A stretch of 64,000 bases of DNA, from contig OY762940.1 in the NCBI GenBank assembly GCA_963667255.1, positions 832,001-896,000 of the forward strand. Direction: 5' to 3'. Positions 2,272-47,474 of this stretch are shown piece by piece. This stretch comes from Candidatus Cloacimonadota bacterium. GTDB taxonomy: Bacteria > Cloacimonadota > Cloacimonadia > G963667145. The notes under the pieces were generated by a model. It had not been told where the DNA came from and ran no database searches. It saw only the letters and a list, made by a program, of their open reading frames with translations. The position numbers were made by a program, and so were the translations under genes. Numbering within the stretch: position 1 is the first letter of the stretch; the number at the start of each line of letters is the position of its first letter.

Positions 2272-2277
2272 TAGATT

Positions 2278-2784
2278 ATGAATTCTATGCCAAACAACCT
2301 AACAATTACCGCTACTCAGATTAATTACTATTTTGTGTGTCATCGTGAACTCTGGTTTTTTTCTCATCAGGTGAATATGGAGCAAAATTCGGAGTTGGTC
2401 GCTTTGGGTAAACTTTTGCACGAAAATTCTTATAAGAGAGAAGAGAAAGAAGTGCAAATCGGACCGATTAAAATTGATTTCATTGGTAAGGATAGAGTTA
2501 TTCACGAGGTTAAAAAAACACCTTCGATTGAAGAGGCTCATACTTGGCAACTCAAATATTATTTGTGGTATCTTAAACAATTGGGAGTGGAAAATTTAAA
2601 GGGCGAGATAGATTATCCTAAACTAAAAAAACGAACGGAAATTGTTTTGAGTAAAGAAGATGAAGAGCAAATCATAAAGATAATAAAAGAAATTGAGCAA
2701 ATTGTAAATTCGCCGGAGATCCCGCAAATCATCAACAAGTCCCGCTGTAAAAAATGTAGCTATTACGAACTTTGTTATATTTAG
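2278..2784 (+). CDS. cas4: CRISPR-associated exonuclease Cas4
   Basis: C(HR)..W N-terminal Cys, KIDF, HEVKK, QLKYYL and C-terminal CKKCSYYELC Fe-S cluster; lies between cas3 and cas1. Confidence 0.95.
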   Translation: MNSMPNNLTITATQINYYFVCHRELWFFSHQVNMEQNSELVALGKLLHENSYKREEKEVQIGPIKIDFIGKDRVIHEVKKTPSIEEAHTWQLKYYLWYLKQLGVENLKGEIDYPKLKKRTEIVLSKEDEEQIIKIIKEIEQIVNSPEIPQIINKSRCKKCSYYELCYI

Positions 2785-2793
2785 GAGGAAAAT

Positions 2794-3786: not shown

Positions 3787-4050
3787 ATGTATGTAATAGC
3801 CGTTTACGATATCGGTGAAAAGCGAGTTGGTAAGATTTTAAAAATTTTTAGAAAATATTTAACGCGGATTCAAAATTCAGTTTTTGAAGGAGAGATTAGT
3901 GATTCAAAATTTGAAAAGCTAAAAATAGAAGTGCTGAAAGTGATAGACAAGGATTATGACAATGTTTTGTATTACAAATTGGTATCCAACAAATATTTAC
4001 GAAAAGAACAGTTAGGGGTGCAATTAGATCAAATGAGTGTCTTTTTGTAG
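3787..4050 (+). CDS. cas2: CRISPR-associated Cas2
   Basis: MYVIAVYDI and IQNSVFEGEI motifs; 87 aa, directly after cas1. Confidence 0.96.
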   Translation: MYVIAVYDIGEKRVGKILKIFRKYLTRIQNSVFEGEISDSKFEKLKIEVLKVIDKDYDNVLYYKLVSNKYLRKEQLGVQLDQMSVFL

Positions 4051-4246
4051 TTGTCGATTTTGATAATTTGGGAAAATTTTTATTTTTTTCTTTGTAAAAT
4101 CTTTGTCTGAATTTGCTTATTTTGTTGTATCCCAATATGTTGTCTATCATTGGGCAATTTTACTTTATTACACATCGACGACAAAAAATTTCGTTTTTTT
4201 TAATATTTGTACTTGTGGAATAAGCATTTGTGTCGTAAAAATTACG
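4051..4246 (+). promoter_or_regulatory. CRISPR leader
   Basis: AT-rich non-coding 196 bp between the cas2 stop and the first repeat; the degenerate repeat lies at the far end of the array. Confidence 0.85.
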
Positions 4247-10200: not shown

Positions 10201-12361
10201 TAGACTACTGTAGAATTGAAATATGAATAGCGGCAATTATAGAATATGGTTGAGGCATTCTTTAAATTAGACTACTGTAGAATTGAAATCTATTTATATA
10301 ACCCTCCTGGCGTTTATGCTTATACTTTAAATTAGACTACTGTAGAATTGAAATATTCCTGCTTTGCTCAAATCAAAAATCATTTGAACTTTAAATTAGA
10401 CTACTGTAGAATTGAAATGGTTTCCAAAACCACACAAAAACGGATAGATTTTACTTTAAATTAGACTACTGTAGAATTGAAATTTTTTAAGAGTTTCATA
10501 TTCACACGCATTGCCAACTTTAAATTAGACTACTGTAGAATTGAAATTATAGCATAAGTTCATTATCGAGTGTTTTTTCTTCCTTTAAATTAGACTACTG
10601 TAGAATTGAAATAAAGGAATTTGGCGTGAAAGTAGAAGCCAAAGCTGGCTTTAAATTAGACTACTGTAGAATTGAAATTTTGTTGTGAATGTTTGGTTAT
10701 TTGTTAGTGTTACTTTAAATTAGACTACTGTAGAATTGAAATCGACTTGACAATGGAAGAGAAACGGCTAACGAAAGACTTTAAATTAGACTACTGTAGA
10801 ATTGAAATCAGCGTGGCACTTACTAACGACCAGTTTCTGAAAGCTTTAAATTAGACTACTGTAGAATTGAAATCTATTTATATAACCCTCCTGGCGTTTA
10901 TGCTTATACTTTAAATTAGACTACTGTAGAATTGAAATATTCCTGCTTTGCTCAAATCAAAAATCATTTGAACTTTAAATTAGACTACTGTAGAATTGAA
11001 ATGGTTTCCAAAACCACACAAAAACGGATAGATTTTACTTTAAATTAGACTACTGTAGAATTGAAATTTTTTAAGAGTTTCATATTCACACGCATTGCCA
11101 ACTTTAAATTAGACTACTGTAGAATTGAAATTATAGCATAAGTTCATTATCGAGTGTTTTTTCTTCCTTTAAATTAGACTACTGTAGAATTGAAATCGAC
11201 TTGACAATGGAAGAGAAACGGCTAACGAAAGACTTTAAATTAGACTACTGTAGAATTGAAATCAGCGTGGCACTTACTAACGACCAGTTTCTGAAAGCTT
11301 TAAATTAGACTACTGTAGAATTGAAATTTAAAACTATGAAGTTGGCTTATAAGCTCGTTACCCTTTAAATTAGACTACTGTAGAATTGAAATACTTCTCT
11401 TTGATTTTTATGTTTATGACGATGATGGCCTTTAAATTAGACTACTGTAGAATTGAAATTAAGCCAATTATTCAAGAGGTTAAATTTTTAGGAACTTTAA
11501 ATTAGACTACTGTAGAATTGAAATAAAGTCGTTCCCTGTTAAGAGGGTTTCACCCCCTTACTTTAAATTAGACTACTGTAGAATTGAAATTTTGCAAGTC
11601 CAACAAAGAGAGCAAAACCAACCGCCTTTAAATTAGACTACTGTAGAATTGAAATTTCTTTTAAATTAGCTAAGTCAGATTTTTTCCATCTTTAAATTAG
11701 ACTACTGTAGAATTGAAATAACATAGATATAAAGTAGACGGAACTTCTAAAACCTTTAAATTAGACTACTGTAGAATTGAAATAAAATTCGGGTGGCACG
11801 GAAATTGCAAGCGGTAGCCTTTAAATTAGACTACTGTAGAATTGAAATTTTTTAATCTCCTAATCTTTCGGCTACTTGACCTACTTTAAATTAGACTACT
11901 GTAGAATTGAAATACAATAACAAAATGGGACGAATTTAGGAGTTAAACTTTAAATTAGACTACTGTAGAATTGAAATATCCATAATCCCTCTCTATAAAT
12001 CCGCTTCTATCGCTTTAAATTAGACTACTGTAGAATTGAAATTAATAAAAAACATACTTTATTTCTCCGCCTATCACTTTAAATTAGACTACTGTAGAAT
12101 TGAAATAAATGAGGCAAATCGTCAAATCCTTGGTCGGTTATTCTTTAAATTAGACTACTGTAGAATTGAAATGGTAGCGATACTGAGACACACACTCATA
12201 AAACCAACTTTAAATTAGACTACTGTAGAATTGAAATCGACAAATACTTGCCTATCCCTGCCCGAATGGTGGCTTTAAATTAGACTACTGTAGAATTGAA
12301 ATACGCCACATCAACAACCTTTACCTCGTCCTGAAAAAAGTGGACTCTATTAGGAGGAAAC

Positions 12362-23768: not shown

Positions 23769-23990
23769 GGTTTATATTTAAGAACTAATTTATAAAATTT
23801 ATTTTGTCAAAATAGGTTATTATTAGAAAAGTTAAAACCTATTATAAACTTGTCTTGAAGCTATTTTTTATTGGATTACCGAATTTTATTTGACTAAATA
23901 TAGGTTTTCGTTACTTGTTGCTGAAGAGGGGAATTATAATAAATGAAAATTGACTTAAAGATAAAATTAGCCGTTATTTTTAAAATATTG

Positions 23991-25101
23991 GGGAGCGTGC
24001 ATTTAATTGGGTCTAATTTCCACTCCTTTTGAATAATTATTGAACCAAATTTTCAAAAAATGATTCATATTTTTTTCAGATTTAAATCCGTCTAAATTTT
24101 TTAATTTCCTATTCAATTGTCGATTAATATTTTCAATTTTATTTGTTGTTTTATCCAAAAAATCGTAATGAAAATGAGCAGTTAATAAACCAAAGTTTCG
24201 ATTAATTGATTTAATAAAACGCTTATGAATTTTTAGGCGAAAAAATTTTTCATAGTGATTAAGCGAACTTAAATTATTTTCAGCTTCTTGTAAAGTTTCA
24301 GCATTTAAAATGCTCTTAATCAAGTTCTTAAAGAAAATATTTCGTCTAAAAAACTTACTCTTTTTTGTTTTAGGAACATTGATATTAACGCTTCTTAAAT
24401 AATGAACCAAGCAAATTTGATGTGGAACATCTTCAAAAAGTTGGTTAACTGGCTTAACAAAGCACTTCCCTCGCCCAAAATCTGACACAATCCCAATTAT
24501 TTTGTTGTCATACATTTTTTTTAGTCTATTCAAAAAGTCTTCAGATGAACTACTATGTTCTCTATCATAAATCTTGTAATATATTGGTTTATCAAGTAGT
24601 TTGCTACTGGCGACTAAGACAACTTTTCGCTTACCGTTTATCTTAATTTCCTTGCCATCAATATAAATTGTTGTCTCATCTATATTGCTGTGTAACACAT
24701 TATCCTGATATAAATTAGCTCGCTGAGGTATCCAATTAAGAATACTATTTTTACAAATCCCATGTCTTTTAGCAACTTCAGAAAGAGAACTTTTGGTTGA
24801 AATATAGTCAGTAACAACCTTATCTTTGAATTTTGGTGCAAAATGAGTTCTCTTATTATATCCAAAATTGGTAAAACTTATTTGGCAATCTTTACAATAA
24901 AATCGTTGAGTTTTGACTTTAATTTTCCCACGATTAGTTGTTCTTTCAGAGAAAATATATCCCTTCTTTTTTGTGTTTAAGCTATCACAATTTGGACAGC
25001 GTTTTTTTTGATTATACTCATGGCATTTTAATAAATGTTCATAACTTATTCTGTCAAACATAATTAGGTCTTATTTCAGACCCAGTTATTTGCACACTCC
25101 C
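23991..25101 (-). mobile_element. IS256-like insertion sequence, copy 1 (1111 bp)
   Basis: 24-bp imperfect IRs (GGGAGTGTGCAAATAACTGGGTCT / GGGAGCGTGCATTTAATTGGGTCT); 8-bp target duplication AAATATTG at 23983-23990 and 25102-25109. Confidence 0.95.
24003..25061 (-). CDS. DDE transposase (IS256/mutator-like core, N-terminal Zn ribbon and HTH)
   Basis: CPNC..QRFYCKDC, YIDG, VSDFG, HQICLVH, TTNKIENINR. Confidence 0.9.
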   Translation of the reverse strand: MFDRISYEHLLKCHEYNQKKRCPNCDSLNTKKKGYIFSERTTNRGKIKVKTQRFYCKDCQISFTNFGYNKRTHFAPKFKDKVVTDYISTKSSLSEVAKRHGICKNSILNWIPQRANLYQDNVLHSNIDETTIYIDGKEIKINGKRKVVLVASSKLLDKPIYYKIYDREHSSSSEDFLNRLKKMYDNKIIGIVSDFGRGKCFVKPVNQLFEDVPHQICLVHYLRSVNINVPKTKKSKFFRRNIFFKNLIKSILNAETLQEAENNLSSLNHYEKFFRLKIHKRFIKSINRNFGLLTAHFHYDFLDKTTNKIENINRQLNRKLKNLDGFKSEKNMNHFLKIWFNNYSKGVEIRPN

Positions 25102-27051
25102 AAATATTGCTTTTACTACTTTTTACTTCAGAGTATAATAGTTCACTATTTTATCCTTTTGTTTCTGCATTTCTAAAAAATTGTACAAATCCTTGGCAGT
25201 ATTATTTAGATAACAATTTATTATTAGATGCCTTCCCTTATCATTCTTTAATGCTGTATATTTTATACCCTTTTGCAAAATTATCAAATTACTTCGGATT
25301 GAATTTGTTTTTCAAATTGCCTTTGTTACTTGCAGATGTATCTATTTTTTATATTTTGAAAAAATTGTTTCCACTTAAAGAAAAGAAAATTTTTATTTTC
25401 TACTTTATTAATCCAATAGTTTTATATGCTATTTATATTTATTCCCAGTTAGACATAATCCCCATGGCTTTGTTTATGTTTGGGGTTCTTTATTTAATTA
25501 ATAAAAAATATATTGTTTCTTCAATTTTTGTAGGATTAGCACTTTCAACAAAATTTCATATAATTGTGGCAGTTCCGTTAATTTTATTTTACCTATATAA
25601 GCGTGAGAACATTAAAGTTAGCATAAAGTATCTTTTCATAAGTATCTTTCTTTTTCTTTTTTTAGATTTCCCTTTTTTGCTTAGTGATGGTTTTTATCAA
25701 ATGGTGATTTTGTCTCCCAAACAATCTCTTTTGTTTGATTCTTTTTATAAGATTGGGGAATTAAAATTATTTTTACCAGTAGCTGCGATTTTATCTGTTT
25801 ACTTGCATTTTTTTAATCAAAAAAAAGTTAATCAAGATTTTCTCTATTTTTATTTTGGATTACTTTTTGTTACTACTATATTTTTTGTATTTCCTGCTCC
25901 TGCTTGGTATGTTTGGAGCATACCTTTTATTTCTATATTTTTTATAGTTAACAAAGATGTGAAAAAATCGACTCTATTATATATTATTTTTTCATTTTCG
26001 TATTTAATTTTCTTCGTTTTCTTTTATGATAGTGAATATAAAGATATTATTTTTTGTGGAAAGGAAATAAATTTTAAAATTTTAAATGAAAGATTGGTTA
26101 ATTTGTCATTTACCGTCTTAGAAATGGTTTTGATATCCATAACATATGTTTTTTATAAATTTGGAATAAAAAGTAATTCACTTTATGGTAATTTTTCTAA
26201 TTTTACGATTGGCATTGGAGGAGACAGTGGTGCTGGCAAAACAAATCTTTTAAATAATCTTAAATCTATTTTAGGTAACAGGCTGTTAAAGTTAGAAGGA
26301 GATGGAGAACATAAATGGGATAGAGATGATAAAAATTGGGATAATTTTACTCATTTGAACCCCAAAGCAAATTATATTTATCGTCAGGCCGATATCATAA
26401 ATACTTTAAAAAACAATAAAGCAGTTAACAGAAGTAAATATGATCACACAAGTGGAGAGTTCACTTCTCCTCAAAAAGTATCTCCAAAAGATTTTATTGC
26501 AATTGCCGGATTACATCCATTTTATTTACCTAAGATCAGAAAAAATATTGATTTGAAGATATTTATTGAAACAGATGAAAAATTAAGAAGGCATTGGAAA
26601 ATATTAAGAGATATGCAAACAAGAGGTTATAATTTTGAGAAAATAGTTGAACAAATTGAGAACAGAATGGGAGATGCTAAAAAATATATTTATCCTCAAA
26701 AAGAGTTTGCTGATATTATCGTTAAATTTTTCCCAATCAATGAATTTCAACTTGGAGATATTGATGAAGAAATTTTTCTTGGTTTAAAAATTATTTTTGA
26801 TGCTAATATTCATATAGAAGATATTTTAAGTAAGTTGGATTGTAAATTTGATTGGGATTATAATGAAAATCTTAAATCTCAATATATTTTGTTAAAATCA
26901 ATCCCTTCTGTTAATTTTGAAATTATTGCTAGAGAAACTATTGAAAATATTGAAGAGTTAATTTCAAACAAAATAGAGTTTGCTTCTGGATATTATGGAT
27001 TTTTACAGTTAATTTTATTAAAAATGATAAGCGAAAAGTTAAAGGAAGAAA

Positions 27052-27735
27052 GTGCTAAAATATAAAGGTTTGCTTTTAGATATAGACAATACTCTTTATA
27101 ATTATAATTTTTCTCATGAAAAAGCTATTAAATCTGTTTTTGAGTTTTGTTTTAAGACTTTCAATCTTGATAAGTTTCAACTAAAAACTGCTTATATATT
27201 TGCTCGGGGGAAAGTGCGAATTGAATTGGCTTCTACAGCTTCATCTCATAATAGATTATTATACTTCCAAAAAATGTTGGAGATTTTAAATCTGAACCCT
27301 CTAAAATATAGTTTAGAATTATATAATATTTATTGGGATAATTTTTTAGAAAACATTTTTCTTTTTGATGGAGTAAAAGAATTGTTTTCTAAATACAACC
27401 AAAAGATTTGTTTAGTAACAGATCTTACGGCTCATATTCAGCATAGTAAAGTTCAAAAGTTTTCTTTAGATAATTATTGTGATTTAATAGTAACTAGTGA
27501 AGAAGTAGGTCATGAAAAACCACATCCTTACATTTTTATGAGAGCCTTACAAAAATTGGGATTAACTGCCAAAAATGTTTGTATGATAGGAGATAATTTT
27601 GAAAAAGATGTTATGGGTGCAAATGATTTAGGAATAGATTCTGTTTGGTGTAATCATGAAAATAAAAAGCATGATTATAAAGGCTTAAATATTACAGAAG
27701 TAAAATCATTTAAAGAGATTTTGGAATTGGTATGA
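27052..27735 (+). CDS. HAD-superfamily hydrolase (phosphatase)
   Basis: DIDNTL motif I, EKPHP, MIGDNFEKDVMGA. Confidence 0.9.
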   Translation: MLKYKGLLLDIDNTLYNYNFSHEKAIKSVFEFCFKTFNLDKFQLKTAYIFARGKVRIELASTASSHNRLLYFQKMLEILNLNPLKYSLELYNIYWDNFLENIFLFDGVKELFSKYNQKICLVTDLTAHIQHSKVQKFSLDNYCDLIVTSEEVGHEKPHPYIFMRALQKLGLTAKNVCMIGDNFEKDVMGANDLGIDSVWCNHENKKHDYKGLNITEVKSFKEILELV

Positions 27736-28802
27736 AAGAAATACGGGATTTAGTTGAAATTTCAAAATATGCCGGTGAAAGATTTGATTTGGTGCAAGCT
27801 GGTGGAGGAAACAGTTCTGTAAAATTAACCAATGATAATATGTTAATAAAAGCTTCTGGTTTTTTATTGAGTGATGTAAATGAGCATAAAGGGTTTTCTA
27901 CTGTAATTACTTCCAAAATAGCAAATATTGTTAGAAATGAAAAAATACTAAATGATAAAAATAAAAAAAATCGTGAGCTGATATCTGCCAAATTAGTTGC
28001 GGAAGCGACTATTGATAAAGTCAACAGGCCTTCGATAGAAACTTTACTTCATTCTTTATTGCTAAAATATACTCTTCATACACATCCTATTGTAGTTAAT
28101 ATGATTGCTATTCAAAAAAAGTGGGAAGAAATTTTATTAAAAATTTTTGCAAAAGAAAAAATTGCTTTAGTGGGATATAGAACTCCAGGGATAGATCTTG
28201 CTCTTACATTAGCCGAAGAATTGCAGAAATTTGAAAAACCCCCCAATATAATTTTTTTACAAAATCACGGTTTAATCGTTACTTCTAATTTTAAAGAAGA
28301 TATTAAAATTTTAACCGAGAAAGTTCTTGAGAAAATTGAAAGGTATTTGAATATTGAAATGGATAAATTTAAATTAACTAACACAATTTCTCATTTTTTT
28401 AATTTATTGAATTGCAAGTCAACTATAACATATTTATGCCAAGATGTTTTTATTGTAAGTCAAATAAAGATTAATAAAGAACTTTTCTTTAGTTCTCCTT
28501 TTTGTCCAGATAGTTTGGTATATTGTGGAATGGTAGTGTGCGAATTAAGTGAAAATAAAGAAATAGAAGATTTAAAAATCTATAAAGCAAAATATTTGTC
28601 TGACCCTAAAATAATTTTATACAAAAACAATCTTTTTTTTGTTGCTCCCACCATAAAAAAAGCGAGAGAAATTGAAGAAGTTTTTAAATATAGCCTTATG
28701 ATTTTAGAAAAAAATAAAAAAAGTGATAAAAATTTTTTAAAAGTCGAAGAGTTGGTTTACCTAAGTAATTGGGGAGCTGAAAAATTTAGGCAAAAAACAT
28801 AA
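27732..28802 (+). CDS. Class II aldolase/adducin-fold protein (RhaD/AraD/MtnB-like)
   Basis: GGGNSSVK, IKASG, RPSIETLLH, HTH, LQNHGL, PFCPD. Confidence 0.88.
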   Translation: MKEIRDLVEISKYAGERFDLVQAGGGNSSVKLTNDNMLIKASGFLLSDVNEHKGFSTVITSKIANIVRNEKILNDKNKKNRELISAKLVAEATIDKVNRPSIETLLHSLLLKYTLHTHPIVVNMIAIQKKWEEILLKIFAKEKIALVGYRTPGIDLALTLAEELQKFEKPPNIIFLQNHGLIVTSNFKEDIKILTEKVLEKIERYLNIEMDKFKLTNTISHFFNLLNCKSTITYLCQDVFIVSQIKINKELFFSSPFCPDSLVYCGMVVCELSENKEIEDLKIYKAKYLSDPKIILYKNNLFFVAPTIKKAREIEEVFKYSLMILEKNKKSDKNFLKVEELVYLSNWGAEKFRQKT

Positions 28803-30286
28803 AGGAAATAAATGTTCAATAATGATTTAAAAAATATTCTAAAACACGACAATGTTAATATTTATCTGTTCCCTTTATTAATATTTGTTTTTTTGTGGAC
28901 CTATGGCAATATAGGTGTTTTAACAAGAACAAGCTTAATTTTACAAATAGTAATAACAAGTTATTTGATTGCTATATTATTATTTCTATTTTTTGTTAAT
29001 GAAAAGTACTTATCTAAAAATAGTGGTATAGATATTATAGTAATAAGTAAAAGTGATATTAAAATAATTTTACTAATTTTGTTTGTATCGCTAGTACTAG
29101 GTTTTAATTATATGCTTTATTCACTTAATGGTGATGAACTAGCACATTCTGTATCTTCGCAATTTTATGCAATATATGGATTACAATTTATATTTAATAA
29201 GTTGCCAAATTTTATTACTGCTCAACAATCTTGGATACTTGTTTGGATTATATCAAATTCTGTGCTTTTAAGTTCAAGTGCACTAATTTATTATATAAAA
29301 AAGCTGAACTTTAAATATAAATATATTGTTCTTTCAATTTTTATATTATTGTTTTTTAGAATTGGATATATATTAAGAGGAGGATATGATCCTTATCATC
29401 CTCCATTTCGGTTGTTCCCTCTTTGGTTGTCAAGTACAATATTTTCAACATCTATTTTTTCTTTCCGACTGCCGGGAGTTATAGCACTAAGCTTAATAGG
29501 TCTTATAATTTATAAAGTCCTAAAAGTAAAAACAAGTAACTATTATTTTTTATCGTTAAGTGTTTTTACATTACTTTCAATTCCTTTACTTTGGCACACA
29601 GCATATATAGTTGAACCATCAATTTGGGCTACTTTATTTTCTATTTTATTTTTATTAGCTTTTCAAGCAGATAAATTGAATAAACTGAGTTTTTTTACAT
29701 GGTTTTTATTGTTAGCTGTATTTATCCTGATGAGACAATCTTTGTTTTTCATTATTCTTCCAATGCTGTTTTTGTTTGCTATGGAAAGGAGAATGTTATT
29801 ACTTAAGAACTGGAAAGAGACTGTTTATGAATTATCTCCATTGTTAATAGTTTTACCATTCTTTATTAGAGGCTTAATACTTGGAACTCCTGCTCAAGCA
29901 AATGTTAGCACAGAACTTCAATGGACCTTATTTGAAAAATTATCCAATGTTGTTTCATCGGGGATGCTAAAAGACATTATTGTAAATAATTTTGAGATTT
30001 GGTCTCTTTTTATACTGTTTGCATTTATACCAACTAAAAATAATCGTGTAAAATATTTTATTACAATTTTATTATATATATTAAGTGCTTTTACCGTGTT
30101 TTACTCGATTAGACCCATTTTATGGGGAATACCAAGATATCAAGCAGAGTACATTATCCCGTTAATAGTTTTAGGTGCAGTAAGACTTTTAGCAATAATA
30201 TTTGGAAGTAACAACAAAACAAGCAAATATATAATAGCTGGAGGCTTACCTCGTCCTGAAAAAAGTGGACTCTATTAGGAGGAAAC

Positions 30287-30673
30287 TTGGACAAAAGAGA
30301 GAAAACTTTTAGATATTCAAAAGCTTTCAGAAATGAGGTTCTAAAGAATGTCAAAAACAAAAAATTGACGGTTTTGGAAGCGGGTAAATATTATGGAGTG
30401 GGATTTCCAACTATTTATCGATGGTTGAAAAAAGCTAATTATGACACGCCCTGTAAGGAGGTAATTTTTGTGAAACTATCAGATCAGCACTCTGCTTTGC
30501 AAGAGATTGAGGAGTTAAAAAAAGAGAATCGTGCTTTAAAAGAGGCTGTGAGCAAGTTAACGCTCGATAAATTGTGCCTTGAAAAGTGTGTAGAAATTGG
30601 TGAGCGGGACTTTGGTATGGAATTAAAAAAAAAGCCCGAAGTACAGGAATTGAGGAAATCAGGCAGAAAATAG
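30287..30673 (+). CDS. IS3-family transposase OrfA
   Basis: Protein identical to 12362-12748. Confidence 0.92.
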   Translation: MDKREKTFRYSKAFRNEVLKNVKNKKLTVLEAGKYYGVGFPTIYRWLKKANYDTPCKEVIFVKLSDQHSALQEIEELKKENRALKEAVSKLTLDKLCLEKCVEIGERDFGMELKKKPEVQELRKSGRK

Positions 30674-31518
30674 TGGAGAAAAAGTTCCCTTTTAAAATGA
30701 ATTCTGTTTGTAAATGGTTTGGGATTAGCAAGTCCGGTTTTTATAAAAAGAAGAAGCACATCGAAAAAACAAAGAAAATTGAAGATGAGATTTGCTTGCA
30801 TATAAATGCGTTACGCAAATTTGGACTTATGTGTGGAGCAAGAAAAACCAAGATTCATTTAAAGGAAGATTTTGACATTATTGTGGGCAGAGATAAATTG
30901 TTTGATATTATGAGAGAAAACGATTTGCAAAGTAAATTTATTAGGAAAAAAGTTCAACATTCCAGTGGAGTTAAGCAAATCTTTGAGAATATGTTAACCG
31001 ATGAATTTAAGAAATCTGTTACAAAATTTGGGCAAGTAATTGTGACAGATATTACCTATATCAAATTGCCCAATAATAAGTTCTGTTACATTAGTTTAGT
31101 TACGGATTTGGCTACCAGAAAAATTTTGGGGTATAATGTGGCTCAAACTCTTTTGGCTGAAGAGTCGGTTAAGGTTATGCGGAAGACATTGAAAAAATAT
31201 AAGTTGCCTAAAGATTGCATACATCATAGTGATAAAGGAGTGCAATATACGAGCAAATTATACACTGATTTTTTGAAGAAAAATAATTTTAGAATGAGCA
31301 TGACAGGTGCGGGCAAATGTTATGATAATGCTTGTGCAGAGCGAGTTTTTAATACTTTGAAGAACGAATTTGGTTTTAATGCTGTTTTTTCAAGTTTGAA
31401 GGAAGTGCGAAGAGAGTTGAAGAATTTTGTTGATATTTATAACAATAGACGATATCATATGAGTTTGGACTATAGAACACCGCAAAGTGTGTTTTTGGAG
31501 ATGCAGAAAGCTGCATAA
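30673..31518 (+). CDS. IS3-family transposase OrfB
   Basis: DDE motifs; 5 amino-acid differences from copy 1. Confidence 0.95.
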   Translation: MEKKFPFKMNSVCKWFGISKSGFYKKKKHIEKTKKIEDEICLHINALRKFGLMCGARKTKIHLKEDFDIIVGRDKLFDIMRENDLQSKFIRKKVQHSSGVKQIFENMLTDEFKKSVTKFGQVIVTDITYIKLPNNKFCYISLVTDLATRKILGYNVAQTLLAEESVKVMRKTLKKYKLPKDCIHHSDKGVQYTSKLYTDFLKKNNFRMSMTGAGKCYDNACAERVFNTLKNEFGFNAVFSSLKEVRRELKNFVDIYNNRRYHMSLDYRTPQSVFLEMQKAA

Positions 31519-32140
31519 TTAATAAAAAACTGAGTCCACTATTTTAGGACTGGACAGCTTGCTTTGTTTGCTATTTTATAATTTATATACTATTTCTATT
31601 TCACATTCTCATAAAAAAACTATAGTAAATAATCATTTAGTAATAACTTCACACCATGTTTATAATTATGAAATTGCTTTTAAAACAGCAAAAGAATATG
31701 GTTATGCAGGAAGTACTGTAACTTTAGGGGTAACATATGGAATCTTGAATGAAGTTTTGTATGGATATAGTTTAATTGAGACAAAAAAACAATTAGAGAT
31801 CCAAAAAAAATTCAATGACTTTGAAGATAATAATATAGATTCTTTAGTTAAAAATGAAAATATTAAACTTGTGCTGCTTTCAGATTTTAGCAATAAAAAA
31901 GAGTATATCTGCACCAAATTAATTAAAAATGGTTTTAAAGAATGGAAAAAATTCTCAAACGAAAAGACAGCGGACGAAATTATAGCATTAGTTAGAAGTG
32001 CCACAAAAGAGATCAAATAATATGCACATAATTATACCCATGTCTGGAATTGGGAAAAGATTTGTCGATGCTGGGTATAAGGAACCCAAACCTTTAATTA
32101 AAGTTGATGGGAAACTTATTATTGAGCATGTATGCAATTT

Positions 32141-33251
32141 GGGAGTGTGCAAATAACTGGGTCTGAAATAAGACCTAATTATGTTTGACAGAATAAGTTA
32201 TGAACATTTATTAAAATGCCATGAGTATAATCAAAAAAAACGCTGTCCAAATTGTGATAGCTTAAACACAAAAAAGAAGGGATATATTTTCTCTGAAAGA
32301 ACAACTAATCGTGGGAAAATTAAAGTCAAAACTCAACGATTTTATTGTAAAGATTGCCAAATAAGTTTTACCAATTTTGGATATAATAAGAGAACTCATT
32401 TTGCACCAAAATTCAAAGATAAGGTTGTTACTGACTATATTTCAACCAAAAGTTCTCTTTCTGAAGTTGCTAAAAGACATGGGATTTGTAAAAATAGTAT
32501 TCTTAATTGGATACCTCAGCGAGCTAATTTATATCAGGATAATGTGTTACACAGCAATATAGATGAGACAACAATTTATATTGATGGCAAGGAAATTAAG
32601 ATAAACGGTAAGCGAAAAGTTGTCTTAGTCGCCAGTAGCAAACTACTTGATAAACCAATATATTACAAGATTTATGATAGAGAACATAGTAGTTCATCTG
32701 AAGACTTTTTGAATAGACTAAAAAAAATGTATGACAACAAAATAATTGGGATTGTGTCAGATTTTGGGCGAGGGAAGTGCTTTGTTAAGCCAGTTAACCA
32801 ACTTTTTGAAGATGTTCCACATCAAATTTGCTTGGTTCATTATTTAAGAAGCGTTAATATCAATGTTCCTAAAACAAAAAAGAGTAAGTTTTTTAGACGA
32901 AATATTTTCTTTAAGAACTTGATTAAGAGCATTTTAAATGCTGAAACTTTACAAGAAGCTGAAAATAATTTAAGTTCGCTTAATCACTATGAAAAATTTT
33001 TTCGCCTAAAAATTCATAAGCGTTTTATTAAATCAATTAATCGAAACTTTGGTTTATTAACTGCTCATTTTCATTACGATTTTTTGGATAAAACAACAAA
33101 TAAAATTGAAAATATTAATCGACAATTGAATAGGAAATTAAAAAATTTAGACGGATTTAAATCTGAAAAAAATATGAATCATTTTTTGAAAATTTGGTTC
33201 AATAATTATTCAAAAGGAGTGGAAATTAGACCCAATTAAATGCACGCTCCC
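32141..33251 (+). mobile_element. IS256-like insertion sequence, copy 2 (1111 bp)
   Basis: Inverted copy of 23991-25101; 8-bp target duplication TGCAATTT at 32133-32140 and 33252-33259. Confidence 0.95.
32181..33239 (+). CDS. DDE transposase (IS256-like)
   Basis: Protein identical to 24003-25061. Confidence 0.9.
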   Translation: MFDRISYEHLLKCHEYNQKKRCPNCDSLNTKKKGYIFSERTTNRGKIKVKTQRFYCKDCQISFTNFGYNKRTHFAPKFKDKVVTDYISTKSSLSEVAKRHGICKNSILNWIPQRANLYQDNVLHSNIDETTIYIDGKEIKINGKRKVVLVASSKLLDKPIYYKIYDREHSSSSEDFLNRLKKMYDNKIIGIVSDFGRGKCFVKPVNQLFEDVPHQICLVHYLRSVNINVPKTKKSKFFRRNIFFKNLIKSILNAETLQEAENNLSSLNHYEKFFRLKIHKRFIKSINRNFGLLTAHFHYDFLDKTTNKIENINRQLNRKLKNLDGFKSEKNMNHFLKIWFNNYSKGVEIRPN

Positions 33252-34786
33252 TGCAATTTATTTCCTGGGGAAGAAAAGTTTACTTTTATCTGCAATTCCA
33301 ATCATTTAGCAAAAACTAATATTCACAAAATTTTGAAAAAATTAAAGCCTAAAGCGAATGTAATTGAAATTCCTAAACACAAAAAAGGTCCAGTTTATGC
33401 TGTATCTTTAATTTATAATTTAATAGATGACGATGAGGAAGCAATTGTTAATTATTGCGATTTTGGAACATATTGGGATTATAAAGATTTTTTGAGGCAT
33501 ACTAGAAGTAGAAATGCTGATGGAGCTGTTCCTGCTTACAAAGGTTTCCATCCACATATGCTCGGAACAACCAACTATGCTTTTATGAGAGATAATAAGC
33601 AATGGATGTTGGAAATAAAGGAAAAAGAGCCTTTTACTGACAACAGAATGAATGAATATGCATCAAATGGAACTTATTATTTCAAAAAGGGCACATATCT
33701 TAAAAAATATTTTAGCAAACTCATTGATAATGATATAAATCTTGGTGGCGAATATTATGTCTCTCTTGTGTATAATCTTCTCGTTAACGACGGTTTAAAT
33801 GTTTCTATATATGAAATCCAACATATGTTGCAATGGGGAACTCCACAAGATTTGGAAGAATATAAAATTTGGTCTAACTATTTCAGAAATGTTATTGTAA
33901 ATCGTAATGAACTCGAATTTGTCCTTCCCAAAAGTACAATGTTAATTCCATTAGCTGGCAAGGGAAGTCGATTTGCAGATGCTGGTTATAAGATACCCAA
34001 ACCTCTTTTAAAAGTAAGCGGAAAACCAATGATAGTTCAAGCAGCTAATTCTTTGCCTAAAAGTGAATCGCAAGTATTTGTTGTTCTTCAAGAGCATTTA
34101 GATAATTTTTCCCTAAAACAATTTTTATTACAAGAATATCCTAACGCAAAAATTGTTCCAATTAACAAAGTTACGGATGGGCAGGCAATTACTTGTAGCT
34201 TTGGTCTCAAAGGCATTGATAAAAATGCACCTTTATTAATAGGGGCTACAGACAATGGTATGATTATAAATAAAGAAAAATATAATAGGCTAATCAGAGA
34301 TAAAAATGTTGATGCTATTATCTTCACTTTTAGGCATCATATAAGTAGTAAAAATAATCCTGAAATGTATGGCTGGGTAAAAGCTGATTTGCTTAATAAT
34401 GCTCTGTCTATTTCGGTAAAAAAACCAATTTCTAAAAATCCATATAATGATCATGCAATAGTGGGAACTTTTTGGTTTAGGCAAGTTGAATTTTTTAATA
34501 TAGCACTTAATAAATTGATTGATGATGACATAAGAATTAATGGGGAATTTTATGTAGATAGTCTAATGGGAGAATTGATAAAAATAGGGTTCAATGTCAA
34601 AGTTTTGGAAGTAGATAATTATATATGTTGGGGGACTCCAAATGATTATGAAACTTTCTATTATTGGCAAAGTTTTTTTCATAAAGCAAAATGGCATCCA
34701 TATTCGTTAGAAAAAGATCCAACTGTTAATAAATCTAAAATTATTAATCTTGATAAAAAATTCAGAAAATTTGAGCAAAAATTTGA

Positions 34787-35155
34787 ATGAGTAAAAATAA
34801 AAGGGAAATAATAAGATTTATTTTTGCTGGCTTTAGTGCTGTTGGTACGGATTTTGTTATTTATTTTATTTTAATTAATGTTTTGTCTAATAGTTTTTCC
34901 AAAATAATTTCATTTGTGTGTGGAACCATAGTTGCCTATTTGATAAATAAATATTGGACATTTGAAAAACACAAGAAATCATTGATTGAAATGTTTAAAT
35001 TCTTTTTCTTATATTTGCTTACTTTAAGTGTCAATGTGATTACTAATAAGATATTTTTGAATAATTTTAATTTAGTTTATTTTTCTTTTTTAATAGCAAC
35101 TGGAATTAGTACAATACTCAATTTTATTGGGCAAAAATGGTGGGTATTTAGATGA
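34787..35155 (+). CDS. GtrA-family lipid-linked sugar flippase
   Basis: 122 aa, about 4 TM helices, RFIFAG, YLINKYWTF, NFIGQKWWVF. Confidence 0.9.
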   Translation: MSKNKREIIRFIFAGFSAVGTDFVIYFILINVLSNSFSKIISFVCGTIVAYLINKYWTFEKHKKSLIEMFKFFFLYLLTLSVNVITNKIFLNNFNLVYFSFLIATGISTILNFIGQKWWVFR

Positions 35156-35179
35156 AGATTTTAATTATAGTAAATAAAA

Positions 35180-35890
35180 ATGTGTAAAATGAAATTTTCC
35201 ATTGTTGTTCCTTGCTATAATGAAGCAAAAAACATCCCTTTAATTTTAAATGAATTTGATACTATTATCAAAAGAAACGATATAGAAGTAATTTTGGTTG
35301 ATAACGGCTCAACAGATAATACGAATGAAGTGATCGAATTATATTTGTCCAAGTATAAATTTGCACGGTCAATTAAAATTGATATTAATCAAGGATATGG
35401 ATTTGGAATTGTCAGTGGATTAAATGTAGCTAAAGGGGAGTTGATTGGCTATACCCATGCTGATATGCAGACAAATCCTACCGATCTACTAACCGCATTA
35501 GAAATAGTAGAAAATCTGAAAAATTGTGAAAATTGTTATGTAAAAGGGAATCGTAAAGGAAGACCTTTGTTTGACCAAATTTTTACAATTGGTATGAGTC
35601 TATTTGAATCGTTATATCTAAAAAAAATTCTTTGGGATATAAATGCCCAACCCAATGTGTTTCATAGGAATTTTTTTGAAAAAATAAAAGATAGTTGTCC
35701 CAAAGATTTTTCATTAGATTTGTATTTATTATATATGGCTAAAAAAATGAGATTTAAAGTTATACGATTTAAAGTTGTTTTCCCACCAAGAGTTTTTGGA
35801 AAGTCAAGTTGGAATACAGGAATAATTTCAAAATGGAAATTTATAAAAAGGACATTAGATTTCAGTTATAAGTTGAAAAAGGAAATATAA
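35180..35890 (+). CDS. GT2 glycosyltransferase (polyprenol-phosphate glycosyltransferase-like)
   Basis: VVPCYNE, VDNGSTD, NQGYG, HADMQ, R.FGKSSW. Confidence 0.9.
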   Translation: MCKMKFSIVVPCYNEAKNIPLILNEFDTIIKRNDIEVILVDNGSTDNTNEVIELYLSKYKFARSIKIDINQGYGFGIVSGLNVAKGELIGYTHADMQTNPTDLLTALEIVENLKNCENCYVKGNRKGRPLFDQIFTIGMSLFESLYLKKILWDINAQPNVFHRNFFEKIKDSCPKDFSLDLYLLYMAKKMRFKVIRFKVVFPPRVFGKSSWNTGIISKWKFIKRTLDFSYKLKKEI

Positions 35891-35893
35891 AAA

Positions 35894-36487
35894 ATGGAAT
35901 TTATTGCTCATAGGGTAAATACTATAAAAGAACTTGAAAAATTATCTTTAGAATATGGAGTTGAAATAGATTTACGAGACTATAGCAATAGACTTATTCT
36001 TCAACATGACCCCTTTAAAATAGGAGAAGATTTTGAAGAGTATCTAAAACTATATAAACATGGGACAATGATACTTAATATCAAAAGTGAAAGAATTGAA
36101 TTTAGGATTTTGGAATTACTAAAAAAATACAATATTTCTAACTATTTCTTTTTGGATTGTTCTTTTCCAATGATTAATCTTCTTACAGAAAATGAAGAAA
36201 AAAATATCGCTTTAAGATTTTCTGAGTATGAAGGATTGGATACAATTTTAAATATGAAAGAAAAAATTAAATGGATATGGGTTGATTGTTTCACAAAATT
36301 ACCCATAGATAAAGAGAGTTATGCTATATTAAAACAAAATAATTTTAAATTGTGTTTAGTTTCCCCTGAACTTCAAAATCAAAAAGAAAAATTAGCTGAA
36401 TATAAACAATACTTGCTAAATAACCAAATAGAATTTGATGCTGTTTGTACGAAGGAATGTAACATTAGCTATTGGGATAAGTTTTAG
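35894..36487 (+). CDS. PLC/GDPD-like phosphodiesterase-fold protein
   Basis: IAHRVN, GVEIDLR, LQHDP, LNIKSE, VSPEL and DAVCT resemble GDPD TIM-barrel motifs. Confidence 0.65.
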   Translation: MEFIAHRVNTIKELEKLSLEYGVEIDLRDYSNRLILQHDPFKIGEDFEEYLKLYKHGTMILNIKSERIEFRILELLKKYNISNYFFLDCSFPMINLLTENEEKNIALRFSEYEGLDTILNMKEKIKWIWVDCFTKLPIDKESYAILKQNNFKLCLVSPELQNQKEKLAEYKQYLLNNQIEFDAVCTKECNISYWDKF

Positions 36488-43569: not shown

Positions 43570-44310
43570 ATGATTAAAAATAAGAAAATAGTTGTTGTAA
43601 TGCCTGCATATAATGCGGAAAAAACTTTAGAAAAAACATATTCGGAAATTCCTTTTGATATTGTGGACGATGTAATTCTTACTGACGATTTTAGTAATGA
43701 TGATACTGTTAAATTGGCACAAAAGTTAGGGATCAAAAATATACTGAGACACCAAAAAAATTTGGGATATGGTGCAAATCAAAAAACATGCTACCAAAAA
43801 GCGTTAGAATTAAATGCAGATATTGTTTTAATGCTACATCCGGATTATCAATATACTCCCCAGCTAATACATTCTATTTGTTATATGATTGCTGATGGTG
43901 TATTTCCTGTGGTTTTGGCTTCCAGAATTTTGGGAAAAGGGGCTTTGAAAGGTGGTATGCCCCTTATTAAATATGTTGCCAATAGATTTTTGACATTTGC
44001 CCAAAATATTTTTTTGAATCAAAAGTTATCGGAATATCATACAGGTTACAGGGCTTTTTCTGCTGAAGTAATTAAATCTATAAATTTGAAAGGGAATTCG
44101 GATGATTTTATTTTTGATAATCAAATGTTAGCACAGATATTTTATAAAAATTATGAAATCGGAGAATTGACTTGTCCTACTAAATATTTTTCCGAAGCTT
44201 CTTCCATTAACTTATGGAGAAGCACAAAATATGGAATTGGTGTTTTGTTTGTTTCATTGCAGTTTAGGTTAGCTAAATTGGGATTTTATAAAAGTAACTT
44301 ATTTGATTGA
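43570..44310 (+). CDS. GT2 glycosyltransferase (DPM-synthase-like)
   Basis: VMPAYNA, DDFSND, NLGYGANQK, HPDYQY, SEYHTGYRAF. Confidence 0.9.
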   Translation: MIKNKKIVVVMPAYNAEKTLEKTYSEIPFDIVDDVILTDDFSNDDTVKLAQKLGIKNILRHQKNLGYGANQKTCYQKALELNADIVLMLHPDYQYTPQLIHSICYMIADGVFPVVLASRILGKGALKGGMPLIKYVANRFLTFAQNIFLNQKLSEYHTGYRAFSAEVIKSINLKGNSDDFIFDNQMLAQIFYKNYEIGELTCPTKYFSEASSINLWRSTKYGIGVLFVSLQFRLAKLGFYKSNLFD

Positions 44311-44398
44311 TTTTTTGGGATACAAGATTTGATAGATATTTGTTTTGGTTCAAGACAACTTGACAAGCAAATTACACCAGTTAAGATAGTATATGCCG

Positions 44399-44900
44399 AT
44401 GAGTAACAAGGGTGTAAAAAATGCCAAAATTTCGGAAGAGAAATTTAGAGAAATAACTATGTATTTTTCTTTAGATATTGAAGCCAGTAGAACTGCAATT
44501 TTGACTAAAATTTGTAGAAATACGAGTAATAATTATTTGTTCAAAATTGGAGAAAGAATTGTTTAGTTTTGCTGTGAAGATTCTCAATTTTCTGGTATAA
44601 TTGAAATAGATGAATCTTATTTTGGTGCAAAGCAGTTAAAGGTAAACGAGGGCGTGGAGTTGAGGAAAGATAAAAGTTTTGGATTACTAAAATGAAGTAA
44701 CAAAGTTTATACACAACTGGTTGATAATTGTAGCAGAAAGACACTACAATCAATTATAAAAGAAAGGATAAAAATGTCAGTGAAAATCCACTCTGATGGG
44801 TGGGAAGCATACAATGGGTTAGTCGATTTAGAATATCAAACCCCAGCGATGTGGCCACTAAAATAATGAATTTGCAATAAAAATGGACATATAAATTGGA
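44399..44900 (+). pseudogene. Degraded IS1595-family transposase relic
   Basis: Fragments across frames: KISEEKFREI..F..DIEA, IEIDESYFG (44609), KGKRGRG, VFGLL, IHSDGWEAYNGLVD (44792), NNEFA. Contains stops and frameshifts and is truncated at the 3' end. Confidence 0.8.
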
Positions 44901-44911
44901 GATAATGTTTT

Positions 44912-45877
44912 ATGGACTTTGATATAAAAGCCCCTGTTTTAGCTTTAGTTTTACCTTGTTACAACGAAGAAGAAGTGTTGCCAACAACAATTAGCCGATT
45001 AACCGAAGTGTTGCAAGAATTAATTGGTTTACAAGAGATTTCAGAATTAAGTTATATGATGTTTGTTGATGATGGAAGTTCTGACTTAACTTGGAATATA
45101 ATTGAAAAAAATTTTGAAGCCAATAAATTTATTAAAGGAATTAAATTTTCAAAAAATTTTGGTAATCAAAGTGCCTTATATGCAGGTATGCAATCTGTTT
45201 TAAATAAATGTGATTGCTTGATTACAATCGATGCGGATTTACAACAAGATGAAAGAAGTATTATTAATTTTATAAAGAAATTTAAAACTGGTTCAGAAGT
45301 AGTTTTAGGTATAAGAAAAAGTAGAAAAATAGATAATATTTTTACAAAATTATCATCAACATGTTTTTATAATTTAATGAATCTTATGGGTGTTAAAATA
45401 GTTAAACATCATTCAGAATATAGGCTTCTTAGTAATAAGGCAAACACAGCATTATTAGGTTTTAATGAAGTAAACCTATTTATCAGAGGTTTAGTTAATT
45501 TAATTGGCTTTAAAACAGATTTTGTATTTTTTACTTGCAAAACTAGAGAAAGAGGAAAAACAAAATTTTCAATTACCAAACTTATTTCTTTAGCTCTTGA
45601 TGGAATAACCTCTTTTAGTGTAGTGCCTTTGAAATTTATTAGTGTAATGGGATTATTGATTTTTCTTATTTCAATCAGTATGATTTGCTATGTTTTTTTT
45701 ATTGCTTTATTTACAGAAAAATCAGTTCCAGGTTGGGCTTCTACTGTTTTACCGATTTATTTTCTTGGAGGAATTCAAATAATTTTTATCGGTATATTAG
45801 GCGAATATATGGGCAAAATATATAAAGAAACAAAAAAAAGACCTTTATATTTTATTGAGAAAAAAGTAGGGATTTAA
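44912..45877 (+). CDS. GtrB-like bactoprenol glycosyltransferase (GT2 with two C-terminal TM helices)
   Basis: PCYNEE, VDDGSSD, KNFGNQ, IDADLQ, GILGEYMGKIY.ETK.RP. Confidence 0.92.
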   Translation: MDFDIKAPVLALVLPCYNEEEVLPTTISRLTEVLQELIGLQEISELSYMMFVDDGSSDLTWNIIEKNFEANKFIKGIKFSKNFGNQSALYAGMQSVLNKCDCLITIDADLQQDERSIINFIKKFKTGSEVVLGIRKSRKIDNIFTKLSSTCFYNLMNLMGVKIVKHHSEYRLLSNKANTALLGFNEVNLFIRGLVNLIGFKTDFVFFTCKTRERGKTKFSITKLISLALDGITSFSVVPLKFISVMGLLIFLISISMICYVFFIALFTEKSVPGWASTVLPIYFLGGIQIIFIGILGEYMGKIYKETKKRPLYFIEKKVGI

Positions 45878-45887
45878 GGATTTAAAT

Positions 45888-47474
45888 ATGTTTTTAAAAA
45901 GAAAGAGATTGTTTTTTTGGGGAATAGTGTTTTTTTACTTTATTTTGATTTTTTATAAGGCAAATTTAGGGATTATAGATGATTATAATTTAGCTGGCAG
46001 TTTTTTTGAAGGGAGATTTTTAAGTTTTTTTATTTTCCCTGAAATTGGAAGGTTTTTCCCTTTGTTAGGGCTTGAATACAATTTTGTTTCTCTTTTTTTA
46101 GTTTGTCCTGTTGCATTTTATACTTGCAATGCATTTCAGTTTTTGTTAGTAGTTTTTTTATTGTTCAAAATTTTAGATGAAATAATTATAAATAATAAAT
46201 TGAAATATTTTTTAATTTTAATTTTTATTTTAAGTCCAGGTTTCGTTACAAGTTGGCTTAGATGCTTAGTTGCCGAAAGGGATTTGGTTCTTTTTTTTGT
46301 TATTTTCTTATACTTTTATCTAAAATTTCAAAATAATCAAAAATTATTATTTTTAATTGTAGGGTTATTGTCTGCCAATATAGCTCTTTATTATAAAGAG
46401 CCAGGGTTTTTGATGCTGGGAACTTTTTCTTTTTTCCATCTTATTTTTGGCTGGAAAGAGATAAATGTAAGACGAAGAATCTTTGATTTTTTACTGCTAT
46501 TTTCCAGTTTTATTTTTATTGTGGTTTACTATTTTGTAGTATATATCCATCGTGGTGAATCTTTATATGGAAATAGCAGTTGGCAGCCATTTTTTTATTC
46601 TTTTTCGCTTTTTATAAATTATGTTTTGAACAATCCTCTTCTTTTTCTAAATATAATTTTTTTTCTTTGGAGATGTTATTGTTTTTTTAAAAAGAAAATT
46701 AAATTTAATTTTCTTTATGATTCCATGTCTTTTGCTGCGATAGTTTATTGTTTAGTTTATTTCAAGATGAGAATGTTTACACCTTACTATTTATTACCGG
46801 CTTATGTTTTTGCATTGCCCGCTTTAGTTTATTATTTTAGTAATATTAATTGGAGAGAAAAGATTTTTCTGAAAATTGCTTCAATTGCAACATTATTGTT
46901 AGTTGTTTGTAGTAGTTTACCTGCTGGACTTTATTGGTTCTCTTTTTATAAAAATATACCTCATAATTACCAAAAAACACTTGTTTTTTTAGAACCATAT
47001 ATTAAAGAAAAATTTGCTAAAGGGGAACGAACTAGTATTTTTCTTTATGGAATATATAGAAACTCTAACTCGGAAGTGTATGGGAGTTTTAGGTTTTTTT
47101 TGTGCGAATATAAAAAATTACCTACAATGTCTTTTGATTTGAAAACAGACATAGAATCTAATAAAAATCGTTGTAAAACCGCCGATTCGCCATACTCTTT
47201 TTGGAATAAAGAAGAAATTGATAAAATCGAAAAAGGTGATTTGCTGATTGTAACACCATACACTTACAAAAATTTTTATAAAGATTCTTTTGATGATTTT
47301 GAGACGATTTTTAGAACAAATTCTCCGATTGTTATCCCAGATGTTAGTTTGAGAGCGATTATTAAATATTTTGTTTCCAGCTATATTCATGAGCACTCAG
47401 ATAATCCCGGAATGTATTCCAATAAATTTTTGGGCTTGCCTCAAGATTTTTATGTGCTCAGAAAAATAAGATAG
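45888..47474 (+). CDS. Polytopic membrane protein, putative GtrC/GT-C-type transferase
   Basis: DD after the first TM helix, GRFFP, YKE motif, about 10 TM helices plus a soluble C-terminus; follows the gtrB-like gene. Confidence 0.65.
   Translation: MFLKRKRLFFWGIVFFYFILIFYKANLGIIDDYNLAGSFFEGRFLSFFIFPEIGRFFPLLGLEYNFVSLFLVCPVAFYTCNAFQFLLVVFLLFKILDEIIINNKLKYFLILIFILSPGFVTSWLRCLVAERDLVLFFVIFLYFYLKFQNNQKLLFLIVGLLSANIALYYKEPGFLMLGTFSFFHLIFGWKEINVRRRIFDFLLLFSSFIFIVVYYFVVYIHRGESLYGNSSWQPFFYSFSLFINYVLNNPLLFLNIIFFLWRCYCFFKKKIKFNFLYDSMSFAAIVYCLVYFKMRMFTPYYLLPAYVFALPALVYYFSNINWREKIFLKIASIATLLLVVCSSLPAGLYWFSFYKNIPHNYQKTLVFLEPYIKEKFAKGERTSIFLYGIYRNSNSEVYGSFRFFLCEYKKLPTMSFDLKTDIESNKNRCKTADSPYSFWNKEEIDKIEKGDLLIVTPYTYKNFYKDSFDDFETIFRTNSPIVIPDVSLRAIIKYFVSSYIHEHSDNPGMYSNKFLGLPQDFYVLRKIR

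Follow-up and report, generated by a model that had tools for sequence, protein, structure and literature searches.

Extracytoplasmic glycosylation by the three-component phage system GtrA/GtrB/GtrC is described in a commentary (PMC11194591), which also deals with the pentofuranose systems of Citrobacter youngae O1/O2 that are based on phosphoribosyl pyrophosphate (PRPP) (Kelly et al. 2024). In Escherichia coli, a fructose module is represented by K4 (kfoE/group_8/group_229) and by K52-like and O92-like loci. Haloarchaeal ribulose-1,5-bisphosphate (RuBP) phosphatase gives ribulose-1-phosphate (Ru1P) and is encoded beside a Ru1P aldolase, as stated in PMC9700705. For xylulofuranose (Xulf), an O-antigen review (PMC7685785) reports that genes for the nucleoside diphosphate (NDP)-Xulf precursor were not found in the E. 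coli O95/O97 clusters (AB812042 and AB812044).

Here, an eight-gene cassette of a Candidatus Cloacimonadota bacterium (GCA_963667255.1, contig OY762940.1; genome of 1.59 Mb) is compared with these systems. The window, that is, the whole stretch of 64,000 nucleotides (nt) analyzed, covers positions 832,001-896,000 of the contig; the cassette forms an island at window positions 23943-36487, with all eight genes on the plus strand. In the reading that we consider rather probable, it is a three-component glycosylation set (GT2, GtrA, and GT-C) equipped with its own donor module, the product of which would be a lipid-linked pentulofuranose (ribulose or xylulose). Seven of the cassette genes are found as a set in many phyla and also on plasmids, whereas the second GT-C varies.

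As judged from sequence, the cassette resembles the GtrABC type in having a GT2, a GtrA, and a variable, likely acceptor-specific GT-C, which is how that type is defined at the gene level; it differs by the addition of a five-enzyme donor module and a conserved kinase-fused GT-C, and its donor is probably not UDP-glucose. In common with the PRPP-based systems, as far as these are covered by the commentary (PMC11194591), it would likely handle a five-carbon furanose via undecaprenyl phosphate and a GT-C; however, it has no UbiA-like polyprenyl phosphoribose synthase, uses a sugar-phosphate nucleotidyltransferase (NT) together with the GT2, and is predicted to yield a ketose instead of an aldose. 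The E. coli fructose module shares the NT family with the cassette, and one of its loci (L071) is likewise of the three-component type. The front end of the fructose-type loci consists of a KfoE-like kinase and a HAD protein of 123 amino acids (mini-HAD), and their NT has a single domain, whereas the cassette has phosphoribulokinase (PRK)-like, aldolase, and GDPD-like proteins, none of which is found in these loci. As in the haloarchaeal non-carboxylating pentose bisphosphate pathway, a HAD protein with RuBP 5-phosphatase as best model adjoins a class II aldolase; yet the haloarchaeal route (PMC9700705) is catabolic and nucleoside-fed, while the cassette would be fed by a PRK-like domain, lies in a biosynthetic island, and has a HAD scoring under the model cut-off. 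Within the literature searched, outside of which most subscription papers lie, neither a description of the gene set nor a characterized match was found, and the set thus stays unassigned to any characterized pathway, as an earlier reading of the bare sequence (the initial annotation) had stated. New are the exact breaks caused by insertion sequence (IS) elements, the empty site in a congener, the non-canonical signatures of the kinase and of the first GT-C, and the link between ketofuranose glycans and this family of NTs.

Predicted enzymes of the cassette

The eight genes had been described as co-oriented, tightly coupled, and AT-rich, and so they are: intergenic gaps range from -14 to +24 nt, and the GC content of the island, with the IS elements taken out, is 26.7% compared with 39.3% for the genome. 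The proposed gene identities are borne out by family matches for seven genes (Pfam/NCBIfam; PRK, E 6e-37; HAD; Aldolase_II, 5e-15; PMT_2, weak, 3e-5; NTP_transferase; GtrA, 1e-20; GT2, 1e-19) and by RefSeq naming for the GDPD-like one, while the emphasis needs one correction: three of the genes are split by IS elements. The same scan of the open reading frames (ORFs) of the island detected no NAD-dependent epimerase/dehydratase family and no UbiA/DprE family, in agreement with the initial annotation.

The first gene (23943-27065) encodes a GT-C-fold membrane domain (GT-C1) fused to a PRK-like kinase. In the kinase part, the P-loop and the PRK fold, including its C-terminal domain, are kept, and the positions that we take to form the site for ribulose-5-phosphate (Ru5P), namely D399, H402, R406, Y445, H447, K498, R501, and D502, are retained in 33-34 of the 34 aligned rows. 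For the adjacent HAD phosphatase (27052-27735), the haloarchaeal RuBP 5-phosphatase model NF053830 ranks first of 42 NCBIfam models with 166.5 bits, under its cut-off, the runner-up model reaching 113.9. The class II (Zn) aldolase-fold protein (27732-28802), which is RhaD N-terminal-like, has the His triad for Zn and the catalytic Glu (E103, H116, H118, H179) invariant in 23 rows. The tandem two-domain NT (32022-34790) carries G-x-G-x-R and P-K motifs in both domains, and its best PDB match is 4EVW of Vibrio cholerae (E 1e-22), with GlmU at E 4e-12. The last gene (35894-36487) would encode a miniature GDPD/PI-PLC-like phosphodiesterase (mini-GDPD); its homologues are named as PI-PLC/GDPD family in RefSeq, there is no Pfam match, and the profile found no PDB match labelled GDPD. 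Residues H6, R7, E24, D26, H38, and K64 are invariant in 19 rows and include the GDPD-type His/Glu/Asp/His, presumably in their usual roles. Mini-GDPD relatives make up 4691 of 4854 candidates; among the INPHARED phages, no match was obtained at 1e-8.

Loading and flipping would fall to a GT2 (35180-35890; PF00535), a likely polyprenyl-phosphate sugar synthase with its conserved residues, and to a GtrA-family small flippase (34787-35155; PF04138, E 1.3e-20). Both membrane proteins of the island besides GtrA have predicted GT-C folds. The model of the GT-C1/PRK fusion has a predicted local distance difference test (pLDDT) score of 90.5; in VIA-align, its transmembrane part matches GPI mannosyltransferase I (Z 27.2, root mean square deviation (rmsd) 3.7, 329 aligned) and further GT-C proteins (ALG6, Z 25.6; ALG3, 25.4; PIG-U, 21.7), and its kinase part matches a PRK-family structure (Z 29.3, rmsd 2.5, 276 aligned). 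For the model of the second, ArnT-like protein (GT-C2; 28812-32020; pLDDT 91.6), the top eight Foldseek matches are all GT-C, the best being ArnT (E 9.9e-4, prob 1.0, TMq 0.45). The two GT-C folds postulated earlier are thus supported by structure prediction, but the proteins should not be treated alike. GT-C1 is conserved and, in the 34-row alignment, has no column that is at least 70% acidic before residue 77, meaning that a conserved loop-1 Asp/Glu is missing, whereas in the variable GT-C2 the acid of the first external loop, D108, is the same without exception (61 of 61 rows), and E446 is invariant as well. We read GT-C2, from these sequence features, as the acceptor-specific transferase; GT-C1 is likely either a scaffold that binds lipid without catalysis or a transferase of an atypical kind.

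Distribution of the gene set and kinship of the nucleotidyltransferase

Fifty-one GTDB loci were found with the NT and their genes scored by tblastn, many loci being cut by contig ends. The aldolase is present in 47 of them, followed by HAD and GT2 (41 each), GT-C1 (40), PRK (39), GDPD (37), and GtrA (27); GT-C2 is present in none. Hosts belong to Bacteroidota, Campylobacterota, Bacillota, Proteobacteria, Cyanobacteria, and others, so that the co-occurrence check proposed in the initial annotation has come out in favor of a recurring set. Intact environmental homologues are present in, for example, Flavobacterium phragmitis (L036) and Paenibacillus tianmuensis (L005). GT-C1 and PRK form a single ORF in 40 of the 40 loci having either, and many loci contain, inside or adjoining the gene set, an unrelated multi-transmembrane protein of 500-700 amino acids. 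Full sets are carried by plasmids of E. coli, Azospirillum, and Hirschia. The E. coli cassette is complete and intact on a 33-kb IncR plasmid (L052:6022-14984), near-identical in two strains (2 of 5426 genomes). By blastn of E. coli chromosomes, the cassette was not found beyond these two plasmids among the 5426 genomes, which is not evidence of absence, because blastn also missed a plasmid copy of 37% identity.

In 34 viral loci, the counts are 33 for GDPD, 32 for NT, 31 for aldolase, 29 for PRK, 12 for HAD, and 2 for GT2/GtrA/GT-C. Instead of GT-C, the fusion partner of the viral PRK is another GT-like domain, which is probably soluble. Because the viral loci hold the soluble genes almost without GT2, GtrA, and GT-C, the system is modular, consisting of a soluble donor module and a transfer module; the soluble genes, travelling without the lipid-carrier genes, therefore likely yield a soluble donor. 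Six NT-GDPD fusions were seen as well, and of 80 viral loci, 18 have a HAD fused to an NT of the cassette family.

The NT profile further matches, at E 2e-27 to 4e-17, single-domain NTs of 234-251 amino acids that are encoded by seven glycan loci of E. coli (the best other match in its own genome has E 1e-4). Judging by gene sizes, one of these loci is laid out like K4; another resembles K52, and a third shows the O92 layout of ten genes, all three labels being given by layout or resemblance and not by serotype. The K52 polysaccharide contains fructose. Deletion of kfoE removes fructose according to a review (PMC8858990), and the O92 polysaccharide is called a "new fructan" in a title seen among cited references. 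The presence of the NT family in fructose-glycan loci therefore lends indirect support to a ketose product, one of the two options of the initial annotation; the other, a polyol, is less likely because the cassette has no reductase. KfoE itself was considered as the homologue of the tandem NT and rejected: the homologue is the adjacent protein of 234-251 amino acids, and the KfoE-like protein scored nothing. Probing with kpsMT led to five capsule loci, three of which were unrelated, as was a fourth (H84). In Campylobacter jejuni, HS1.08 is a transferase of 849 amino acids.

Several E. coli loci merit mention on their own. At L071:10707-18270, a GT2, an LPG-synthase-type flippase, a kinase, a mini-HAD, an NT, a 926-amino acid protein, and GtrA constitute a three-component version of the fructose type, located downstream of an O89/O101/O162-type cluster. 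Mini-HAD, KfoE-like, and NT genes are also encoded at L073:6573-12503 (O78, together with WavE) and L070:11857-14569 (O20/O137). Proteins of the WavE family, found repeatedly next to both of the sister modules (L055, L056, L072, L073), are candidate ketofuranosyltransferases.

A YhcW-like HAD, adjoining or fused to the cassette NT family, makes up a third front end. Chloroviruses MT325 and TN603 carry xylulofuranose according to PMC9614988, and both are among the ten members of the chlorovirus cluster CL0878, annotated "dTDP-glucose pyrophosphorylase/HAD" (PMC3602175), by annotation an architecture that matches. ATCV-1, CVM-1, NE-JV-1, NY-2A, PBCV-1, and MA-1D, six viruses with described glycans (PMC5408694), are not represented in CL0878, the tree of which also includes A. 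lipoferum, Y. enterocolitica, and B. diminuta, as given in PMC3602175. Clusters CL0878, CL0879, and CL0876 (PMC3602175) are adjacent chlorovirus genes common to MT325 and TN603 and thereby candidates for a viral xylulose pathway.

Proposed pathway and alternatives

In the pathway that we infer, in all its enzymatic steps, the PRK-like domain would convert Ru5P into RuBP, from which the HAD phosphatase would remove the 5-phosphate, freeing O5 for C2-O5 furanose closure. Kinase and 5-phosphatase make a sensible start, because the furanose of a pentulose can close only once the 5-phosphate is gone. The Zn aldolase fold would then epimerize the pentulose-1-phosphate by retro-aldol/aldol chemistry, with L-xylulose-1-phosphate as the simplest product. 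One NT domain would form NDP-1-pentulose, the mini-GDPD would pass the phosphate on to the anomeric C2, with a 1,2-cyclic phosphate as intermediate, and the other NT domain would produce NDP-2-pentulofuranose. Eventually, GT2 would load undecaprenyl phosphate with the sugar, GtrA would flip the lipid-linked sugar, and the variable GT-C2 would move it onto a host-specific surface acceptor outside the cytoplasm. The exact order of the epimerization, NDP-1-pentulose/phosphate-shift, and NDP-2-pentulofuranose steps is doubtful.

Several observations weigh against a pentulofuranose product or against individual steps. The NT is only distantly akin to those of the fructose loci, at 23-27% identity, and the KfoE-like kinase and mini-HAD gave no match in the ORFs of loci L001-L057 and are absent from all 51 cassette loci. 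The fructose-type module is also found in the O78 and O20/O137 clusters, and the O78 structure, as published, is not known to include a ketose; both glycans may bear an acid-labile ketose overlooked in structure work. Nor do we know of an activity or a glycan structure for any carrier of the exact cassette. The Glu that we take to be the Walker-B residue of PRK (E of xEGLH) is kept in one of the 34 rows, the other 33 having Ala (as the kinase of the window does), Ser, Cys, or Thr; an upstream Glu397, conserved in 32 of the 34, may or may not stand in for it. The 166.5 bits of the HAD fall short of the curated NF053830 cut-off of 330, and in 22 of the 34 viral loci HAD was not seen in the 6-kb flanks. 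Around the 18 HAD-NT fusions, no mini-GDPD was found up to a distance of 5 kb, which weakens the C1-to-C2 phosphate shift as a general scheme. The tie between the cassette NT family and chlorovirus xylulose is one of annotation, not of sequence comparison, and the cluster of Y. enterocolitica O:10, a glycan with L-Xulf, lists no donor genes of this kind (PMC11380512). Other xylulose-bearing strains are Devosia submarina KMM 9415 and C. jejuni RM1221.

The alternative that survives best, although unlikely, is that the PRK-like domain, in its altered form, transfers phosphate straight to the anomeric C2-OH, following the kinase, phosphatase, and NT logic of heptose pathways; the product class would be the same, the mini-GDPD would only proofread or recycle, and one NT domain may be structural. 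The Walker-B change in the bacterial rows and the Cys, Ser, or Ile at this position in the viral rows would suit such a role, but the Ru5P-site residues and the whole PRK fold are retained, and on chemical grounds a pentulose-5-phosphate is unable to form a furanose bearing a C2-OH. Likewise, the fructose-type loci manage with a kinase, a mini-HAD, and one NT domain in the absence of GDPD, whereas GDPD accompanies the cassette in 37 of the 51 bacterial loci and is fused to NT in the six cases mentioned. Direct phosphorylation also fits with the repeated fusion of PRK to what would be the last transferase, which is a GT-C in the cassette and probably a soluble GT in the viral loci.

Quite unlikely is a scheme in which the aldolase fold acts on Ru1P as a dehydratase, decarboxylase, or rearranging enzyme, leading to a lipid-linked branched, deoxy, or shortened sugar or polyol phosphate. 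Class II folds do include the MtnB dehydratase and decarboxylases, to which the protein has weak matches, and an extra C-terminal region is conserved (D238, P259, D260, E350, R353); however, the top matches are aldolases of the RhaD/FucA type, the missing reductase speaks against a polyol, and the NT family is linked to ketofuranose glycans. That PRK, HAD, and aldolase are a catabolic route (RuBP to Ru1P to dihydroxyacetone phosphate and glycolaldehyde) riding beside ordinary GtrABC-type glucosylation is very improbable, for in spite of the resemblance of the HAD and class II aldolase pair to the haloarchaeal operon, PRK is fused to GT-C in each of the 40 GTDB loci having either, the soluble genes stay with NT and GDPD in viruses lacking the lipid-carrier genes, and spending ATP to degrade Ru5P would be illogical in a glycan island.

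Returning to the lipid-linked pentulofuranose, a wider and tentative proposal is that one NT family represents a general, hitherto unrecognized route to nucleotide-activated ketofuranoses with swappable front ends. Fructose would be served by KfoE kinase and mini-HAD, xylulose by a YhcW-like HAD, and a pentulose by PRK together with RuBP phosphatase, aldolase, and mini-GDPD. Possibly, a Calvin-cycle kinase and RuBP would here have been recruited for glycans, an NTP-driven C1-to-C2 cyclic-phosphate shift would operate, and the first polyprenyl-phospho-ketose donor for a GT-C would be formed.

Insertions, genomic setting, and implications

Three of the eight genes are interrupted. The GT-C/PRK gene is split, 16 codons past its start, by an IS256-like element of 1111 bp (23991-25101, minus strand; 8-bp target duplication), the GT-C2 gene by an IS3-family element of 1310 bp (30247-31556, plus strand; 3-bp target duplication), and the NT gene, in domain 1, by an IS256-like element identical to the first copy (32141-33251, plus strand; 8-bp target duplication). 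Removal of the elements in silico gives open frames of 667 (GT-C/PRK), 631 (GT-C2), and 549 (NT) amino acids, in agreement with intact homologues, which measure 631 amino acids for GT-C2 (72% identical) and ~547 for NT. The genome contains 17 near-full, near-identical IS256-like and 6 full IS3-family copies, and the spread of both is a recent expansion. As the frames are otherwise clean, the insertions look recent; with three genes split, this copy of the cassette is probably inactive, and a second copy of the cassette genes was not found in this genome.

The island is flanked by infB upstream (ending at 23768) and by an MFS gene downstream (36497, minus strand). In a congener (G001), only ~70 nt separate infB from the MFS gene, corresponding to an empty site; four further congener loci are too short to reach the MFS gene. 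The GDPD profile matches 2 of 41 related genomes, and the match outside the window, in congener G002, belongs to a different sister module. The nearest homologues come from Campylobacterota and Bacteroidota (Sulfurimonas, 71% identity; Arcobacter, 72%; Flavobacterium, 69%). From the empty site, the patchy GDPD, and these homologues, it follows that the island is a horizontally acquired import. The sister module of G002 (L062; G002:C1:1112000-1131999) comprises mini-GDPD, HAD, and two NT-family genes in place of the cassette. Elsewhere in the window, a second AT-rich patch (43570-47474) encodes a GT2, a GtrB/PgfS-like GT2, and a 528-amino acid protein with no family match, possibly another lipid-carrier glycosylation set. 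At 25-3783, cas3, cas4, and type I-B cas1 are found, followed by ~8 kb devoid of long ORFs (~4000-12300; a probable CRISPR array) and an IS3 copy (~12322).

Ketose branches are acid-labile and at times lost in routine glycan analysis; such decorations may therefore be under-reported. For the question of how ketoses, xylulose among them, are activated in bacterial glycan synthesis, the cassette offers a defined set of enzymes. If the proposed pathway is true, RuBP would gain a role outside CO2 fixation, and this would bear on the use of PRK matches as markers of autotrophy in genomes and viromes.

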